A program made the position numbers and the translations under genes. The notes beneath the pieces are model-generated. The model saw only the letters and a list, made by a program, of their open reading frames with translations, was not told the origin of the DNA and ran no database searches. Of a stretch of DNA of 64,000 bases, positions 42,705 to 56,679 are shown piece by piece (position 1 is the first letter of the stretch; each line of letters begins with the position of its first letter). Location of the stretch: contig JAUICL010000004.1 of assembly GCA_030427905.1 (NCBI GenBank), positions 151,722 through 215,721 on the forward strand, given 5' to 3'. Source of the DNA: Bacteroidia bacterium (GTDB taxonomy: Bacteria > Bacteroidota > Bacteroidia > Flavobacteriales_D > Cryomorphaceae).

Positions 42705-43574
42705 ATGAGCGTTCTAGTAAATAAAGATTCTAAAATCATCGTTCAAGGTTTCACAGGTGGAGAAGGAACTTTCCACGCTGGCCAGATGATTGAGTACGGT
42801 ACCAATGTAGTTGGTGGAGTAACTCCGGGTAAAGGTGGACAAACCCACCTCGACCGTCCAGTTTTTAACACAGTAGCTGAAGCTGTTGAGAAAACGGGAG
42901 CCGATGTTTCCATCATATTTGTTCCACCAGCATTCGCAGCTGATGCCATTATGGAAGCAGCCGACGCGGGAATTAAAGTAATCGTAACGATTACCGAAGG
43001 AATTCCTGTAAATGACATGGTGAAGGTGAAGAGCTACATCGACCAGAGAGACTGCACGCTTATCGGGCCAAACTGTCCGGGTGTGATGACTGCCGGAGAA
43101 GCAAAAGTAGGTATCATGCCAGGCTTTATCTTCAACAAAGGAACTGTAGGAATCGTGTCTAAGTCGGGAACTTTGACTTACGAGGCGGTTGACCAAATCA
43201 CAAAGGCAGGATTGGGACAAACGACAGCTATCGGAATCGGTGGAGATCCTATCATCGGAACAACGACCAAAGAAGCCGTTCAGATGTTGATGAACGATCC
43301 AGAGACCGAAGGAATCATCATGATCGGTGAGATCGGTGGTAACTTGGAAGCAGAAGCTGCACGTTGGATCAAAGAAAACGGAACGAAGCCTGTAGTTGGA
43401 TTTATCGCTGGTGAAACTGCGCCTAAAGGACGTACAATGGGTCACGCTGGAGCCATCGTAGGTGGTGCTGAAGACACAGCCGAAGCGAAGAAGGCTATTA
43501 TGCGTGAATGTGGAATCCACGTTGTGGATAGCCCAGCACACATCGGAGCTAAAATGGCTGAGCTACTGGCTTAA
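42705..43574 (+). CDS. sucD: succinate--CoA ligase subunit alpha
   Basis: [33 protein letters not shown], and the GHAGAIV active-site His loop. Confidence 0.95.
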
Positions 43575-43597
43575 TACTGACAAGAAACCTTCTGATG

Positions 43598-43650
43598 AAG
43601 TCACATCGAGTGGCCGAGAGAATGGAGGCTGTATCGAGATGGACGACAAG
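43598..43650 (+). repeat. solo A arm of the GIY-YIG-associated element family, wedged between the sucD stop and its terminator
   Basis: AAGTCACATCGAGTG-GCCGAGAGAATGGAGGC-TGTATCGAGATGGACGACAAG. Confidence 0.7.
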
Positions 43651-43706
43651 GTTTGTGCTGTTTCCATTTAAAGACAGCCCTAACAATATTAGATTTTTCA
43701 TAAGTA

Positions 43707-43737
43707 AACCCTGACGAATCTCGTCAGGGTTTTTTCT
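43707..43737 (+). terminator. rho-independent terminator of sucD
   Basis: CCCTGACGA-atc-TCGTCAGGG stem (43709-43729) followed by TTTTTT. Confidence 0.8.
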
Positions 43738-43779
43738 TGCTATAAAAGTTAAATGATGTTAGCCTATTTGGAGAGAACT

Positions 43780-43954
43780 AAGTCACATTAAGCGACAGTC
43801 CTGATCGCTAGCGTCGGGGATGGACGTCATCAATTTAGTGAACTATTAAATTCAACCACTCTAAGCCGTCGTTCTCGATACACTCCTAACCCTTCCTTTG
43901 GTCGGTTAGGACTACCATTGACGCTACGGTCAAGACATATGCTCGAACTGACTT
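43780..43954 (+). repeat. gene-less element copy (degenerate A arm plus B arm)
   Basis: AAGTCACATTAAGCG...GGATGGACGTCATC, then CCGTCGTTCTCGATACA...GCTCGAACTGACTT. Confidence 0.6.
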
Positions 43955-43967
43955 TAAGCAATAAATA

Positions 43968-44142
43968 AAGTCACATCGAGTGCCTGTGACCGACCAACGG
44001 GTAGGTCTGAGGCGTATCGAGATGGACGGCAAGACTTGTATACAACTTGACTCCGACATATTTTCCCGTCGTTCTCGATACATCCCGAAAGCTTTCGGGA
44101 TACCCTGACGTTCTCAGTCAGGGCAGGTGCTCGAACTGACTT
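43968..44142 (+). repeat. gene-less element copy (A arm, about 32-bp spacer, B arm with two hairpins)
   Basis: All four conserved boxes are present. The hairpins are TCCCGAAAGCTTTCGGGA and CCCTGACGTTCTCAGTCAGGG. Confidence 0.7.
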
Positions 44143-44158
44143 AAAACCGTAAAATTTA

Positions 44159-44223
44159 GTCACATCGAGTGCCTGTGACCGACCAACGGGTAGGTCGGAG
44201 GTGTATCGAGATGGATGGCAAAG
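44159..44223 (+). repeat. solo A arm, followed by a diverged duplicate of the sucD terminator segment
   Basis: Near-identical to the A arm at 43968-44033. The downstream 44224-44313 is homologous to 43651-43737. Confidence 0.65.
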
Positions 44224-44282
44224 TTTGTACTGTTTCCATTTACTTTCTTATCCCTAGAAATATTAGCCTTTTCAAAAGAAAA

Positions 44283-44316
44283 CCCCAACGAATCTCGTCA
44301 GGGTTTCTTTTTTGCT
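44283..44316. terminator. degenerate copy of the sucD terminator hairpin; may terminate the convergent gene 44330..45124
   Basis: CCCCAACGA-atc-TCGTCAGGG with two stem mismatches, and T-runs on both strands. Confidence 0.35.
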
Positions 44317-44329
44317 TAAACCTTCCGGT

Positions 44330-45124
44330 CTATTTGCTTACAATCAGTTTTTCCACGTATCGGTTTCCTTCACGATCTTCAGCCGAAACGATATAAGTTC
44401 CATTCGGCAGCTCAGAAACATCCATGCGGCGGTTCAGCTCATTGATTGAGCTTTCCATCACCAACACACCCAGGGTATTGTAAATGCGAACGCTCTCTAA
44501 TTGATGGTCGCCATCAATAGTGAAGTGATCAACTGTAGGGTTGGGGTAAATGCTCAGATCGCTGATGTTGGGATCGAAGGTAGAAGTCACCGCATCAAAC
44601 TCCATGGCATCGACAGAGATGATGGCGTCGCCAGCCACCAGGTCTCCAACTTGAGCTGTAACGACGATCTCAGCATCGGTTATGATCGGATCAATTCCAT
44701 CCATTTCGATGGTGATTTGGGTCCAATCTTCTATAGTCTCCGATGTAAACCATTCGTAGTAGGCTACGATGGCTTCCTGCTCATAGAAGTAGATGGTCAC
44801 CTGTACCGCACCGAATTCGCAGAGCGTTTTCACATAAAAACTCAGGTTACTCGGAATGTAGTCAATCTCAAAAAGGGCTGATGCCGAAGCGTACTCACCA
44901 ATTCCCGTTGTCGGTTGTGATGTGACGCGCATGGCGTAGTCGCCTTCGTAAGCATCGAAATCCCGATCAACTGGCTCCCAGAGCTGGGAGTTTTCTGTCA
45001 TCCAACCATCAGGGGTGTAGTTCCAAGTGTTTGATGTCCAGTTTTCAAACCCTGGGTTGGGGATTGATTGCCCCAGCAGGGTCAGGCTTATAATAGAGAA
45101 TAAAAAGGTAGAAATGGATTTCAT
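44330..45124 (-). CDS. secreted protein with a T9SS C-terminal sorting domain
   Basis: Signal peptide. C-terminal IYPNPTVDHFTIDG...VRIYNTLGVLV...LPNGTYIV...KLIVSK. Confidence 0.75.
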   Translation of the reverse strand: MKSISTFLFSIISLTLLGQSIPNPGFENWTSNTWNYTPDGWMTENSQLWEPVDRDFDAYEGDYAMRVTSQPTTGIGEYASASALFEIDYIPSNLSFYVKTLCEFGAVQVTIYFYEQEAIVAYYEWFTSETIEDWTQITIEMDGIDPIITDAEIVVTAQVGDLVAGDAIISVDAMEFDAVTSTFDPNISDLSIYPNPTVDHFTIDGDHQLESVRIYNTLGVLVMESSINELNRRMDVSELPNGTYIVSAEDREGNRYVEKLIVSK

Positions 45125-45302
45125 GTCTATATGTTTAGTTTGCTTGTGTTCATTTTCAATAGTGCAGGAATGATCAGAAAGGTTACAGTTAAATTACGAA
45201 TGTTTGAATTAGGAATTACGAGTGGGGAATGGGGAATTCGGAATTGGAGTGCTGAATCAAACTTTTCCAGAGCATTGTCAGTTAATTTAGAACGCCAAAA
45301 TC

Positions 45303-45450
45303 AAGTCACATCGAGTGATCGACTGAAAGGAGATTGTATCGAGATGGACGACACTATTTTTACAACATTTCAATACCGAAGAACATTCCCGTCGTTCTCG
45401 ATACATTCCTGACACTCTTTATAGTCGGTCAGAAATACTCGAACTGACTT
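45303..45450 (+). repeat. gene-less element copy (A arm, 35-bp spacer, short B arm)
   Basis: AAGTCACATCGAGTG...TGTATCGAGATGGACGACAC ... CCGTCGTTCTCGATACA...CTCGAACTGACTT. Confidence 0.7.
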
Positions 45451-45465
45451 AATGTCCTAAGATGC

Positions 45466-45995
45466 AGTCACATCGAGTGGCTCTGCCCGACCAGCGGAAA
45501 GGGTAGAGCTGTATCGAGATGCGACGGCAACCAATGAACACATCTCATATCTCGAAACATATATTCTCAACTATCACTTTTCCCCAGTCAAAACTTCTTT
45601 TTTGCCAAATCCACCAGTTTCCCAAATTCCCCATCTACTAGAGCTTGCTTTTTTGCATGGCTCCACTTTTTGATTCTTTTTTCCATTGCAATAGCTGCTT
45701 CGGGCGATGTAAAGCCTTCCGAATAAACGAGCTGCACAGGCCTCCGGCTGAATGTGTAAGAGTTAGGGTCTTTTCCTGATTGGTGTTCTCCAAACCGATG
45801 CTCGAGATCATTCGTAACACCGGTATAAAAAGTCTCATCAGTACAAAGTAAGATGTACAAATACATTCGTGAGCCTGCTTCTTTCATGTTTTAAAAATAA
45901 AGGAATTGAGGTCACTTGCCGTCGTTCTCGATACACCCCGAAGGCTTTCGGGGTACCCTAACGTTCTCAGTCAGGGCATGTGCTCGAACTGACTT
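45466..45995 (+). mobile_element. full-length element: A arm, GIY-YIG gene (antisense), B arm
   Basis: A arm at 45466-45530, ORF at 45588-45887, B arm at 45919-45995. The architecture matches 55711-56265. Confidence 0.55.
45588..45887 (-). CDS. small stand-alone GIY-YIG nuclease-family protein (YhbQ/COG2827-like)
   Basis: YLYILLC...FYTGVTNDLEHRFGEH...YSEGF...E: GIY and YIG blocks with the conserved Arg and Glu. 87 of 99 residues are identical to 55859..56158. Confidence 0.85.
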   Translation of the reverse strand: MKEAGSRMYLYILLCTDETFYTGVTNDLEHRFGEHQSGKDPNSYTFSRRPVQLVYSEGFTSPEAAIAMEKRIKKWSHAKKQALVDGEFGKLVDLAKKKF

Positions 45996-46010
45996 AAAAC
46001 AGTAAAATGT

Positions 46011-46186
46011 AGTCACATCGAGTGGCTCTAGCCGACCAGCGGAAAGGGTAGAGATGTATCGAGTTTTAGATCCCGACCGTTAGCGTCGGGGATGGACGAC
46101 AAGTCTTTTAGAATTGTTCATTATCGAAAAACATTCCCGTCGTTCTCGATACACCCCGAAGGTATTCGGGGTACTCGAACTGACTT
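46011..46186 (+). repeat. gene-less element copy (long A arm with an extra CCCGAC...GTCGGG hairpin, 33-bp spacer, short B arm)
   Basis: All boxes are present and it ends CTCGAACTGACTT at 46186. Confidence 0.7.
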
Positions 46187-46307
46187 CTTTACCGTCGTGA
46201 TTCACAATTTCTCGAATCACGAGCCAACCCAAAAAGCTATAATTTCTAAATTCCCGTATTCCATATACCTGAGTTTTTAACTTTGTTGGCTGTTTAATAT
46301 CTAGACT

Positions 46308-47054
46308 ATGAAATTACTGGAAGGAAAAGTAGCCATCATAACAGGTGCATCGCGAGGAATCGGGAAAGCCATCGCTCAATCATTCGTTAATCAGGGAGCC
46401 ATTGTATGCTTCACATACCGCAGCTCTGACGAGAAAGCCAGGGAGTTTGAAGCGGAGCTTACCGCTCAAGGTGGAGTAGCGCAAGGATTCAAATCTGACG
46501 CGGGCGATTTCGACGCCGCTCAAAAATTAGTTGATGAGGTGATCGAAGCCCACGGATCTATCGACGTATTGGTTAATAACGCCGGTATCACACGCGACAA
46601 TTTGCTGATGCGAATGAACGAAGAGCAGTGGGATGAAATCATGGCTGTTAACCTCAAGTCTGTTTTCAACCTGACCAAAGCCGTTTTGCGCCCTATGCTA
46701 AAGGCGCGTGGTGGGTCTATCATCAATATGAGTTCTGTAGTAGGGGTGAAGGGTAATGCCGGTCAGGCCAACTACGCCGCTTCAAAAGCAGGAATTCTAG
46801 GGTTTACCAAGTCGGTTGCCTTGGAGCTCGGTTCGCGAAACATTCGTTGCAACGCCATCGCTCCCGGATTTATCGAAACGGAAATGACCGATGCCCTCGA
46901 TGAGAAGACAGTTCAGGAATGGAGAGATGCCATCCCGCTCAAGCGCGGTGGTACACCAGAAGACGTGGCAAACTTGACGCTCTTCCTAGCTTCTGATATG
47001 AGTAATTACATCACCGGCCAAACCATCAATGTGGATGGTGGAATGCTAACCTAA
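46308..47054 (+). CDS. fabG: 3-oxoacyl-[acyl-carrier-protein] reductase
   Basis: TGASRGIGKA, NNAG, and the YAASKAG catalytic YxxxK. The length is typical. Confidence 0.9.
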   Translation: MKLLEGKVAIITGASRGIGKAIAQSFVNQGAIVCFTYRSSDEKAREFEAELTAQGGVAQGFKSDAGDFDAAQKLVDEVIEAHGSIDVLVNNAGITRDNLLMRMNEEQWDEIMAVNLKSVFNLTKAVLRPMLKARGGSIINMSSVVGVKGNAGQANYAASKAGILGFTKSVALELGSRNIRCNAIAPGFIETEMTDALDEKTVQEWRDAIPLKRGGTPEDVANLTLFLASDMSNYITGQTINVDGGMLT

Positions 47055-55535: not shown

Positions 55536-55695
55536 AAGTCACATCGAGTGGCTCTGGCCGACCAGTGGAGAGGTCAGAGGTGTATCGAGATGCGGCGACA
55601 CTAATTGTACAACATTTCAATTCTGGGAACTTTGCCGTTGTTCTCGATATATTCTTCACATCTTGTTAGTCGGTAAAGAATACTCGAACTGACTT
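55536..55695 (+). repeat. gene-less element copy (A arm, spacer, short B arm), starting 18 nt after the thioesterase stop
   Basis: AAGTCACATCGAGTGGCTCTGGCCGACC...TGTATCGAGATGCGGCGACAC ... CCGTTGTTCTCGATATA...CTCGAACTGACTT. Confidence 0.7.
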
Positions 55696-55710
55696 AGAAT
55701 CGTAAACTGC

Positions 55711-56265
55711 AGTCACATCGAGTGGCTCTGCCCGACCGGCGGGAAGGGTAGAGGTGTATCGAGTCTTGATCCCGACCGTAAGCGTCGGGGATGGACGACA
55801 ACCAATGAACACATCTCTTATTTCAAAGCTTAAATTCTCATTTACCACTTTACCCCAGTCAAAACTTCTTTTTCGATAGTTCAACCAGTCTCCCAAAGTC
55901 CCCATTTACCAGGGCTTGCTTTTTAGCATGGCTCCACTTTTTTACTCTTTTTTCCATTGCAATAGCTGCTTCAGGAGATGTAAAGCCTTCTGAATAAACG
56001 AGTTGCAATGGTCGTCGGCTGAATGTGTATGAGTCCGGGTGTTTTCCCGATTGATGTTCTCCAAACCGATGCTCAAGATCATTCGTGACACCTGTATAAA
56101 AAGTGTTGTCAGAACAGAGTAAGATGTACAAATACATTCGTGCGCCTGCTTCTTTCATGTTTTAAATTTAAAGAATTGGGGTTGCTTGTCGTCGTTCTCG
56201 ATACACCCCGAAGGCTTTCGGAATACCCTGACGTTCTCAGTCAGGGCAGGTGCTCGAACTGACTT
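55711..56265 (+). mobile_element. full-length element: A arm, GIY-YIG gene (antisense), B arm
   Basis: A arm at 55711-55801, ORF at 55859-56158, B arm at 56189-56265. The flanks between the arms and the ORF are homologous to those of the copy at 45466-45995. Confidence 0.55.
55859..56158 (-). CDS. small stand-alone GIY-YIG nuclease-family protein (second copy)
   Basis: Same motifs as 45588..45887, with 12 substitutions over 99 aa. Confidence 0.85.
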   Translation of the reverse strand: MKEAGARMYLYILLCSDNTFYTGVTNDLEHRFGEHQSGKHPDSYTFSRRPLQLVYSEGFTSPEAAIAMEKRVKKWSHAKKQALVNGDFGRLVELSKKKF

Positions 56266-56279
56266 TAATCAATTAAATT

Positions 56280-56469
56280 AAGTCACATCGAGCGACAGTC
56301 CTGATCGAAAGCATCAGGATGGCCGACTGCAAGGAGGCTGTATCGAGATGCGACGACAATAGATGTATACAACTTGATTCCACCATACTTTGCCGTTGTT
56401 CTCGATACACCCCGAAGGCTTTCGGGGTACCCTAACGTTCTCAGTCAGGGCAGGTGCTCGAACTGACTT
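56280..56469 (+). repeat. gene-less element copy (A arm with an extra TCCTGAT-cgaaagc-ATCAGGA hairpin, spacer, long B arm)
   Basis: All boxes are present. It is preceded by the 14-bp linker TAATCAATTAAATT. Confidence 0.7.
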
Positions 56470-56483
56470 TAATCAATTAAATT

Positions 56484-56618
56484 AAGTCACATCGAGTGGC
56501 CGACTGCAAGGAGGCTGTATCGAGATGCGACGACAATAGATGCATTCAGCTTGGTTCCCACATATTTTGCCGTTGTTCTCGATACATCCCGAAGATTTTT
56601 GGGATACTCGAACTGACT
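56484..56618 (+). repeat. gene-less element copy (A arm, spacer, short B arm)
   Basis: All boxes are present. It is preceded by an identical 14-bp linker, TAATCAATTAAATT (56470-56483). Confidence 0.7.
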
Positions 56619-56679
56619 CGAGCTTTGGGTTGTTAGGTTATATCTTCCACAAGCTTCACCGACAAACCATTAAAACCAA

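Follow-up and report, generated by a model that had tools for sequence, protein, structure and literature searches.

A tagged DNA hairpin module flanking a GIY-YIG nuclease gene in Flavobacteriales is a candidate new version of the Ssn nuclease/repeat partnership

Within a 64,000-nucleotide stretch of a Bacteroidia bacterium genome of the family Cryomorphaceae (assembly GCA_030427905.1, contig JAUICL010000004.1, positions 151,722 to 215,721; hereafter the window), we analyzed three arrays of one type of repeat arm, located at 43598-44315 (array I), 45302-46187 (array II), and 55536-56619 (array III). Arrays II and III each enclose a gene for a 99-amino acid GIY-YIG nuclease, the two copies being 88% identical, while array I is devoid of the gene. 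We found that the two arms bounding each repeat unit, previously distinguished as A and B, are one module placed in opposite orientations, a self-contained and strand-oriented DNA hairpin of ~45-90 nt whose fold is selected within the single arm. The module accompanies the same nuclease family in other genomes and is also widely dispersed without it. We propose that arms and gene constitute a structurally new version of the partnership between Ssn nucleases and their hairpin repeats, and not a novel class of mobile element, working in the manner of Ssn and its repeat NTS, and we put the probability of this reading at roughly 0.6; as judged from sequence, membership in the Ssn/NTS kind is likely.

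Read from 5' to 3', the arm opens with an unpaired tag, (C/T/A)GTCA, which leads into a 4-bp clamp formed by N1N2TC and GAM1M2. The clamp encloses an asymmetric internal loop that is nearly invariant (GAGTG / TGTATCGA) and a distal hairpin that is free in sequence and length; in the window lineage, an extra GACG(R) follows the clamp. Using the regular expression (C/T/A)GTCA-N1N2-TCGAG(T/C)(G/A)-variable segment-GTATCGAGA-M1M2, we extracted 298 arms of 36-93 nt from 54 sources. In this set, the dinucleotide after GTCA is the reverse complement of the dinucleotide after GTATCGAGA, occurring as GT/AC (146 arms), CT/AG (84), CA/TG (28), GG/CC (9), GC/GC (3), or GA/TC (2). The clamp complementarity recurred in 231 of 272 arms of an independent, arm-anchored metagenome sample (here and below, counts from this sample are among the matches listed). 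Covariation was measured on a model-fitted alignment (A3) of the 150 best arms, in which 98.1% of the cells pair as compared to 80.7% in shuffles, and the covariation score reaches 0.44 as compared to 0.13 in shuffles and 0.05-0.11 in slid registers. These counts are biased toward the model, to which the alignment had been fitted. The clamp result itself came first from the plain regular-expression extraction, before model fitting. The outer clamp pair is G-C in 89 of the 150 arms and C-G in 44, and all five modelled pairs of the distal hairpin vary on both sides. Folding of single arms with DNA parameters likewise gave clamp and hairpin, with z scores down to -3.5.

These data bear directly on how the two arms of a unit relate to each other. 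The first-pass annotation of array II had described the B boxes as reverse complements of the A boxes, with 10 of 12 positions matching in the imperfect pair, and had taken the arms for composite terminal inverted repeats. The relationship between the boxes is real insofar as the B arm is the A arm inverted. However, the two mismatched positions (CA versus GT) are compensated inside each arm and not between arms; thus, the selected structure is the intra-arm hairpin, and A-B pairing was ruled out as the functional structure. With the covariation confined to the single arm and no selection for A-B pairing, the interpretation as terminal inverted repeats is not supported. In the window, every plus-strand arm has the clamp CA/TG and every minus-strand arm GT/AC. 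The orthologous first arm of array III in the closest available genome, a Cryomorpha sp. metagenome-assembled genome (MAG; locus L007), carries the clamp TT/AA and a different hairpin, a compensated change relative to the CA/TG of the window.

Among the 150 arms, the tag letters G, T, and C are found in 149, 150, and 150, respectively; C precedes these letters in 88 arms and T in 56, A follows them in 122, and the covarying clamp begins at the next base. Across genera whose proteins are only 50-60% identical, there is no or almost no variation in the unpaired GTC of the tag or in the loop letters GAG-T and GTAT-GA. The invariance of unpaired tag and loop across genera, together with their tight linkage to one protein family, points to recognition by a protein.

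To define this linkage, we sampled 80 loci with relatives of the window protein at 49-88% identity, taking one genome per species, which yielded 84 GIY-YIG open reading frames (ORFs). A long arm lay within 150 nt of 55 of the 84 ORFs, mostly in Flavobacteriales, and long arms were present on both sides of 48; Flagellimonas homologues carry recognizably the same boxes. The commonest geometry, seen at 28 loci, is that of the window, with inward-pointing arms and distal tags; from the end of the upstream arm to the ATG there are ~25-40 nt, and from the stop codon to the start of the downstream arm ~10-15 nt. Among the 29 loci without long arms, 23 instead have short hairpins of the plan YGTCA-N4-GAG(N5-7)TCGA-N4', in which N4 and N4' covary. 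There is typically one upstream (+) and one downstream (-), and nearly no such sites occur in shuffled sequence. The short-hairpin loci belong to Bacteroidales, Sphingobacteriia, Chitinophagaceae, Weeksellaceae, Ignavibacteriales, a Spirochaetes MAG, and Peribacteria MAGs. The nesting of the gene between inverted arms that the first-pass annotation described in array II thus extends well beyond the window.

The same plan flanks plasmid-borne relatives in three further genera. The repeats read GTTCA-GGCT-GAGCGAAGTCGA-AGCC in Sphingomonas, TGTCA-TTCT-GAGTGAAACGA-AGAA in Planktothrix, and, with an inserted hairpin, CCTCA-TCCT-GAGGTG-hairpin-CCTCGA-AGGA in Methylobacterium. Because the plan recurs around relatives in other groups, the long arm, GTCA-(G/C)TTC-GAGTG-hairpin-TGTATCGA-GAA(C/G), can be read as an elaborated member of a much wider class, which by its sequence plan is defined by the tag, the 4-bp clamp, a GAG...TCGA loop, and an optional inserted hairpin. 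No repeats were seen at the Legionella and Xanthomonas relatives from the plasmid search. A Cupriavidus plasmid match, considered as a repeat-flanked reference, was set aside as a YhbQ-like gene without repeats.

Several individual loci deserve mention. The gene faces the clamp types in opposite ways in different lineages: upstream and downstream arms are GT/AC and CA/TG in the window, and CT/AG and GT/AC in most Flavobacteriaceae (L009, L015, and others). Recombination between the inverted arms could have turned the interior around. In Maribacter, Allomuricauda, Flagellimonas flava, and related MAGs (L015, L017, L026, L073, and L075), the arm-flanked gene lies 74-105 nt upstream of recJ, identified by the Pfam domains DHH, DHHA1, and RecJ_OB and encoding an exonuclease specific for single-stranded DNA. 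We rejected recJ linkage as a general feature, as it concerns 5 of the 80 loci and represents a conserved, syntenic single-copy locus of that clade alone. On the Planktothrix agardhii plasmid p1 (NZ_LR882964.1; L212), a 94-amino acid GIY-YIG gene flanked by TGTCA-tagged hairpins is part of a defense-gene neighborhood: on one side lies a type IIL MmeI restriction-modification gene, on the other drmA, which encodes the DISARM helicase. Some contigs binned to distant phyla also carry the gene, with long Flavobacteriales-type arms in L076 (Candidatus Peribacteria MAG) and L038 (Sulfitobacter MAG) and with short tagged hairpins in L011 (Spirochaetes MAG), L037, and L039 (both Candidatus Peribacteria MAGs); these occurrences reflect either mis-binning or horizontal transfer.

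Outside such loci, the arms are mostly found without the gene. An exact-pattern scan of metagenome contigs identified at least 120 arm loci, with marine and aquatic samples prominent. Among the matches listed, 272 arms fall into 131 clusters, comprising 61 single arms, 43 doublets, and larger arrays. A GIY-YIG gene is located near 5 of the 131 clusters, and 82 clusters, each 500 bp or more away from a contig end, have no gene; gene-less arm copies thus vastly outnumber gene-bearing ones. Almost all clusters (128 of 131) are outside long ORFs, and single arms between co-directional genes show no orientation bias, 16 being co-oriented with these genes and 12 opposed. Intergenic and mostly gene-less, the arms behave like extragenic repeats of the repetitive extragenic palindrome (REP) and bacterial interspersed mosaic element (BIME) type. 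Inverted doublets with distal tags are the commonest paired form (68, median spacer 18 nt), followed by head-to-head (37) and direct (19) pairs. Unlike clamp types are joined in 51 of the 68 tags-distal and in 28 of the 37 head-to-head doublets, whereas direct neighbors are mostly of the same type. Carriage by phages was rejected: a collection of 2.9 million viral contigs contained one arm match, and the phage proteins found by tblastn are distant (38-47% identity).

We also compared array content between relatives. The array III flanks of the Cryomorpha MAG are 85-90% identical to those of the window; the MAG lacks the last two miniature units of the window array (~290 bp), and its linkers are longer. 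The two extra units in the window have identical linkers. Presence/absence polymorphism, which the first-pass annotation had proposed to look for, therefore does occur at an orthologous locus. Target-site duplications were not visible on inspection of the ends of the three window arrays. Direct tandem arm arrays were found elsewhere (L027, 4315-5066; L128, 17-1212; L064, 4486-8117) with periods of 148-190 nt; in L064, 16 arms lie downstream of the gene. In L027 and L128, whole periods are 89-97% identical, which is satellite-like and indicates plain tandem duplication. The same identity, spacers included, ruled out a reading of the direct arrays as CRISPR-like (clustered regularly interspaced short palindromic repeats). 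Compared as possible deletion derivatives, the interiors of miniature and gene-bearing units showed weak similarity only. Together, duplication and recombination explain the observed array polymorphism, which speaks neither for nor against transposition.

Next, we characterized the nuclease. Pfam PF01541 spans residues 8-80 of the 99-amino acid protein, with no other domain, and AlphaFold2 predicts one compact GIY-YIG domain (predicted local distance difference test score, 87). Among solved structures, the UPF0213 proteins BH0048 and EF2693 come closest, followed by Slx1 and the N-terminal domain of UvrC; by sequence, the best solved structure is likewise a UPF0213 protein (E = 4.8e-13), and no Ssn entry was found in this search of solved structures. 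An exhaustive homologue search yielded 9,788 clusters (formed at 50% identity) with E <= 1e-3, of which 1,424 reach E <= 1e-10; the 150 best are mostly 90-160 amino acids long. NCBIfam, PADLOC, and PHROGs gave no match for the protein. In BLAST comparisons, the window protein scores 85 bits against a repeat-flanked Sphingomonas protein, and repeat-flanked alphaproteobacterial proteins reach 85 bits as compared to 52-60 bits for UPF0213 proteins. The UPF0213/YhbQ/YazA proteins (PDB 1zg2, 1ywl) share the size and fold of the window protein, are its best solved-structure match by both sequence and fold, and have the motif YT.SRRP in common with it. They differ in being less similar to it, with 33-38% identity in the plasmid search and 39-43% to the two PDB fragments, versus 47-50% (48% by BLASTP) for the closest repeat-flanked relatives, those of Sphingomonas and Methylobacterium. 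In addition, the single UPF0213-like locus inspected, that of Cupriavidus, has no flanking repeats, unlike the window locus.

The first-pass annotation held that no described family pairs a ~100-amino acid GIY-YIG protein with such arms; this statement is superseded by the Ssn enzymes and their NTS/SRM repeats. Neisseria meningitidis (Nm) SsnA, a 94-amino acid single-domain GIY-YIG protein (CDD cd10448), binds a CGTCA-tagged hairpin repeat, NTS, as single-stranded DNA only and cuts just upstream of it on one strand, with no action on double-stranded DNA or RNA (Chenal et al. 2025, Nat Commun, PMC11893778). The ssnA gene is flanked by the repeat ('NTS-ssnA-NTS'), hundreds of NTS copies are extragenic, homologues in several phyla have cognate repeats of their own, and the Neisseria system modulates transformation; its authors also drew the parallel to REP/BIME repeats and their RAYT enzymes (REP-associated tyrosine transposases) (PMC11893778). 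The system described here resembles Ssn/NTS in several respects. The protein is a single GIY-YIG domain of similar length (about 94-100 amino acids, inside the range of about 90-150 that defines Ssn proteins), and the gene is flanked on both sides, within 500 bp, by tagged hairpin repeats, which is true of both window genes. The repeat has an unpaired 5' (C/T)GTCA tag with a stem directly after it, occurs in many clustered extragenic copies without the gene, and varies in sequence by lineage along with the protein. The distance between the GIY tyrosine and the catalytic glutamate of the window protein is 58 residues, as between Y6 and E64 mutated in Nm SsnA, but the window protein is equally similar to UPF0213; the 94-amino acid Planktothrix protein matches Nm SsnA in length and in its reported Y17/E64 positions. 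The main difference is architectural, since window arms are composite and 45-90 nt long, as compared to inverted repeats of 20-50 nt for NTS/SRM and ~30 bp for the NTS motif.

Similarities extend to other extragenic repeats. REP/BIME repeats reportedly go together with RAYT transposases, in arrangements known as REPINs and REPtrons (Nunvar 2010; Bertels & Rainey 2011; Ton-Hoang 2012). Like these, the arms are tagged hairpins (those of RAYTs being read as single-stranded DNA), form inverted doublets, and can hold the enzyme gene between two inverted repeats. They also build mosaic arrays in which two types of unit alternate in orientation, as seen in the window and in the heterodimers that predominate among the inverted doublets of the metagenome sample. 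Unlike the RAYT systems, they accompany a GIY-YIG hydrolase and not an HUH (Y1) tyrosine transposase of the IS200/IS605 type, and their tag is (C/T/A)GTCA and not GTAG. Moreover, REPs tagged with CGTC or TGTC have been catalogued, including in Bacteroidetes, with a dedicated enzyme lacking (Di Nocera et al. 2013, PMC3733652). The arms share with them the terminal tag, the extragenic location, dimers of unlike units, the presence in Bacteroidetes, and the lack of association with a transposase. They differ from the 8-9-bp stem and 4-5-nt loop of those REPs in having a 4-bp clamp, an internal loop, and a long structured interior, and from their mainly head-to-head dimers (PMC3733652) in that arm doublets are mostly tail-to-tail (68 versus 37 head-to-head among the matches listed).

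By analogy with Ssn, we suggest the following mechanism. When DNA becomes single-stranded, during replication, repair, transformation, or conjugation, the arm would fold. The nuclease would recognize the folded arm through the invariant loop and tag and nick that strand beside the tag. The variable distal hairpin may serve as a structural spacer, and the pairing of unlike clamp types within a doublet may avoid long perfect palindromes. In the genome, the arms are dispersed as single copies, as inverted doublets of unlike clamps, and in arrays that duplication and recombination make longer or shorter; the gene occupies the spacer of a doublet. A more far-reaching proposal, which we regard as possible and on the whole doubtful, is that tagged hairpins and nuclease form a self-propagating system resembling REPIN/RAYT, with a hydrolytic nuclease in place of the HUH transposase. 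Nicks in single-stranded DNA adjacent to the tag would then trigger host-repair copy-in and so spread the doublets and the gene. The plan common to Flavobacteriales, Bacteroidales, Sphingobacteriia, Alphaproteobacteria, and Cyanobacteria would in that case represent a pan-bacterial repeat superfamily missed by Ssn-motif searches, with a protein subfamily outside cd10448.

Several observations weigh against an Ssn-type partnership. The published SRM expression, HGTCWYN(0-2)YYVSBRHN(0-5)WNVSBRGN(0-2)RNCYNB, recovers canonical NTS but matched none of these arms or short hairpins (0 in the 80 loci and 0 in the plasmid loci), and its one match in the window is at chance level and outside the arrays; the Sphingomonas, Methylobacterium, and Planktothrix repeats are of the GAG...TCGA type and not of the NTS type. 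By BLAST, the UPF0213 protein BH0048 (60.5 bits) is about as close to the window protein as the 94-amino acid Planktothrix protein (58.9 bits), and the Joint Genome Institute (JGI) names for homologues follow the COG2827/YhbQ style. The position of the gene relative to the arms varies, being (+,+) at 9 loci and (-,+) at 8. Last, G·T wobbles exceed A·C mismatches on the tag strand of the 150 arms (22 versus 9), a weak hint that this is the folding strand, and one that cannot separate DNA from RNA. One alternative is that the arms act mainly as RNA, as REP-like stabilizers, terminators, or non-coding RNA, the nuclease gene being just a frequent neighbor. Hairpin covariation would fit RNA equally well, a function of REPs in transcripts is known (Di Nocera 2013, PMC3733652), and the arms of array I adjoin terminator-like hairpins. 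However, the window contains no Rfam family match, both arm orientations occur in one array, and single arms follow and oppose the flanking genes with the similar frequencies given above; the tag and loop, unpaired and invariant across genera, are linked to one protein family. We therefore consider an RNA role of this kind improbable.

The remaining alternatives assign the gene its own mobility. The autonomous-versus-miniature relationship that the first-pass annotation saw in array II would, as a mobile element, amount to a cut-and-paste DNA transposon with composite terminal inverted repeats, a GIY-YIG transposase, and miniature units related to the gene-bearing one as miniature inverted-repeat transposable elements (MITEs) are to an autonomous copy. 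Part of this relationship stands: inverted arms bound gene-bearing and gene-less units alike, the gene is nested in the slot that corresponds to the short spacer of gene-less doublets, an arrangement matched by the homologues with long arms on both sides and by the predominance of tags-distal gene-less doublets, and unit number differs between close relatives. The mobile-element part fares poorly. Covariation lies within and not between arms, the ends of the window arrays have no visible target-site duplications, 61 of the 131 arm clusters among the matches listed are single arms, the arrays elsewhere are plain tandem duplications, and viral contigs contributed a single match. Furthermore, no strand-transfer or joining chemistry is known for GIY-YIG hydrolases, which act without a covalent intermediate. 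Such a transposon is accordingly very improbable. A homing-type selfish gene, for which the gene-less inverted doublet would be the empty target, cut by the nuclease and repaired by copying the gene into the spacer, and gene-bearing units would be occupied sites, is likewise improbable. In its favor, the two window genes share one slot and face the two arm types alike, gene-less doublets with spacers of 35-36 nt are frequent, and GIY-YIG enzymes include classical homing endonucleases such as I-TevI, which share the catalytic domain and possibly a selfish lifestyle. Yet the protein amounts to a bare 99-amino acid catalytic domain and has none of the DNA-binding modules found in known GIY-YIG homing enzymes. 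Its genes are chromosomal and intergenic, not located in introns, inteins, or phages; PHROGs gave no match and the viral contigs a single arm match. In other genomes the gene takes the other slots counted above, a single syntenic copy is kept beside recJ in some lineages, and most arm sites have no gene.

The layout of the window arrays is summarized in Table 1. The three head-to-tail units of array II (45302-45450, 45464-45995, and 46009-46187), with their boxes, arms, and hairpins, are all present as the first-pass annotation had drawn them, as are the antisense GIY-YIG ORF of the middle unit and linkers of two or three sequence types, which were read directly; the original observation is confirmed and proved much broader than described. 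The box AGTCACATCGAGTG has 17 matches in the window at up to 3 mismatches as compared to 4.1 expected (0 of 100 shuffles reach 17), and the box CCGTCGTTCTCGATACA has 13 as compared to 0.06 expected. With filters off, a covariance model of the arm gave 17 hits in the 64 kb, all within the three intergenic arrays. Interiors of gene-less units measure 35-36 nt in all six units examined and align weakly with the first ~36 nt of gene-bearing interiors. Rfam gave no match at the gathering threshold in the whole window, and 43400-46400 gave sub-threshold, chance-level hits only. The flanking genes are housekeeping: a succinyl-CoA ligase alpha subunit, a type IX secretion sorting-domain protein, a short-chain dehydrogenase/reductase (SDR)/FabG-like reductase, and a thioesterase.

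Table 1. Arms, interiors, and nuclease genes of the three window arrays (window coordinates).
Feature	Position	Strand	Description
Array I, gene-less, first part	43598..44315		+ arm 43598-43649 with tail and terminator-like hairpin to ~43740; degenerate + arm 43780-43829; - arm 43866-43954
Array I, gene-less, second part	43598..44315		+ arm 43968-44032; - arm 44066-44142; + arm 44158-44221 with second tail and terminator copy to ~44315
Array II unit 1 arm	45302..45353	+	Tag AGTCA, clamp CA/TG, short hairpin, box TGTATCGAGA-TG, lineage-specific GACGACA extension; covariance-model hit 45302-45348, 37.1 bits; regular-expression arm
Array II unit 1 interior ("middle"), 35 nt	45354..45388		Slot equals that of the gene in unit 2
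Array II unit 1 arm (B arm of the first-pass annotation)	45389..45450	-	Clamp GT/AC; covariance-model hit 45392-45451, 47.1 bits
Array II unit 2 arm	45464..45529	+	Clamp CA/TG; downstream of gene in the gene's orientation; covariance-model hit 45464-45523, 37.8 bits; DNA fold gives clamp and hairpin
GIY-YIG nuclease gene copy 1, 99 aa, single-domain	45588..45887	-	ORF; Pfam PF01541, E = 1.2e-16
Array II unit 2 arm	45919..45995	-	Clamp GT/AC, two hairpins; upstream of gene in the gene's orientation; ends 38 nt before ATG
Array II unit 3 arm	46009..46102	+	Clamp CA/TG; extra small hairpin 46072-46091 between GTATCGAG and ATGGACGACAA; covariance-model hit 46009-46065
Array II unit 3 arm	46137..46187	-	Clamp GT/AC; covariance-model hit 46140-46187, 43.9 bits; DNA fold z = -3.5
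Array III arm pairs (+ / -)	55536..56619		55536-55600 / 55635-55695; 55711-55801 / 56189-56265 (encloses gene); 56280-56359 / 56393-56469; 56484-56536 / 56570-56618
GIY-YIG nuclease gene copy 2, 99 aa	55859..56158	-	88% identical to copy 1

Two local features of the arrays were also recorded. An arm followed by a ~60-nt tail and a terminator-like hairpin (AAACCC(T/C)(G/A)ACGAATCTCGTCAGGGTTT, then a T-rich run) occurs in two copies that are 84% identical (43598-43740 and 44158-44315) and bracket the rest of array I, immediately following the succinyl-CoA ligase gene. The arrangement resembles the outcome of a local segmental duplication in which the terminator of that gene was copied too. A hammerhead-like CTGATGA before the first arm of array I was dismissed as chance, since it is present as a single copy. 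Some arms contain extra small hairpins (46072-46091, 55771-55790, 43799-43820, and 56299-56319), for example, CCCGACCGTTAGCGTCGGGG between GTATCGAG and ATGGACGACAA, or TCCTGATCGAAAGCATCAGGA directly after box 1; arms appear to evolve by nested hairpin insertion.

Site-specific cleavage of single-stranded DNA is known from no nucleases other than the Ssn enzymes, which are under development as tools. If the arms and the GIY-YIG gene work as an Ssn-type partnership, the Flavobacteriales lineage would offer many natural candidate enzyme-substrate pairs with an unusually long, structured recognition element, and the covarying clamp and free distal hairpin indicate which parts of the arm can be changed. 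Because the published SRM expression misses the tag, clamp, and GAG...TCGA class in several phyla, the reach of the enzyme-repeat partnership has probably been underestimated. In marine Flavobacteria, the arm module accounts for conspicuous intergenic repeat arrays.

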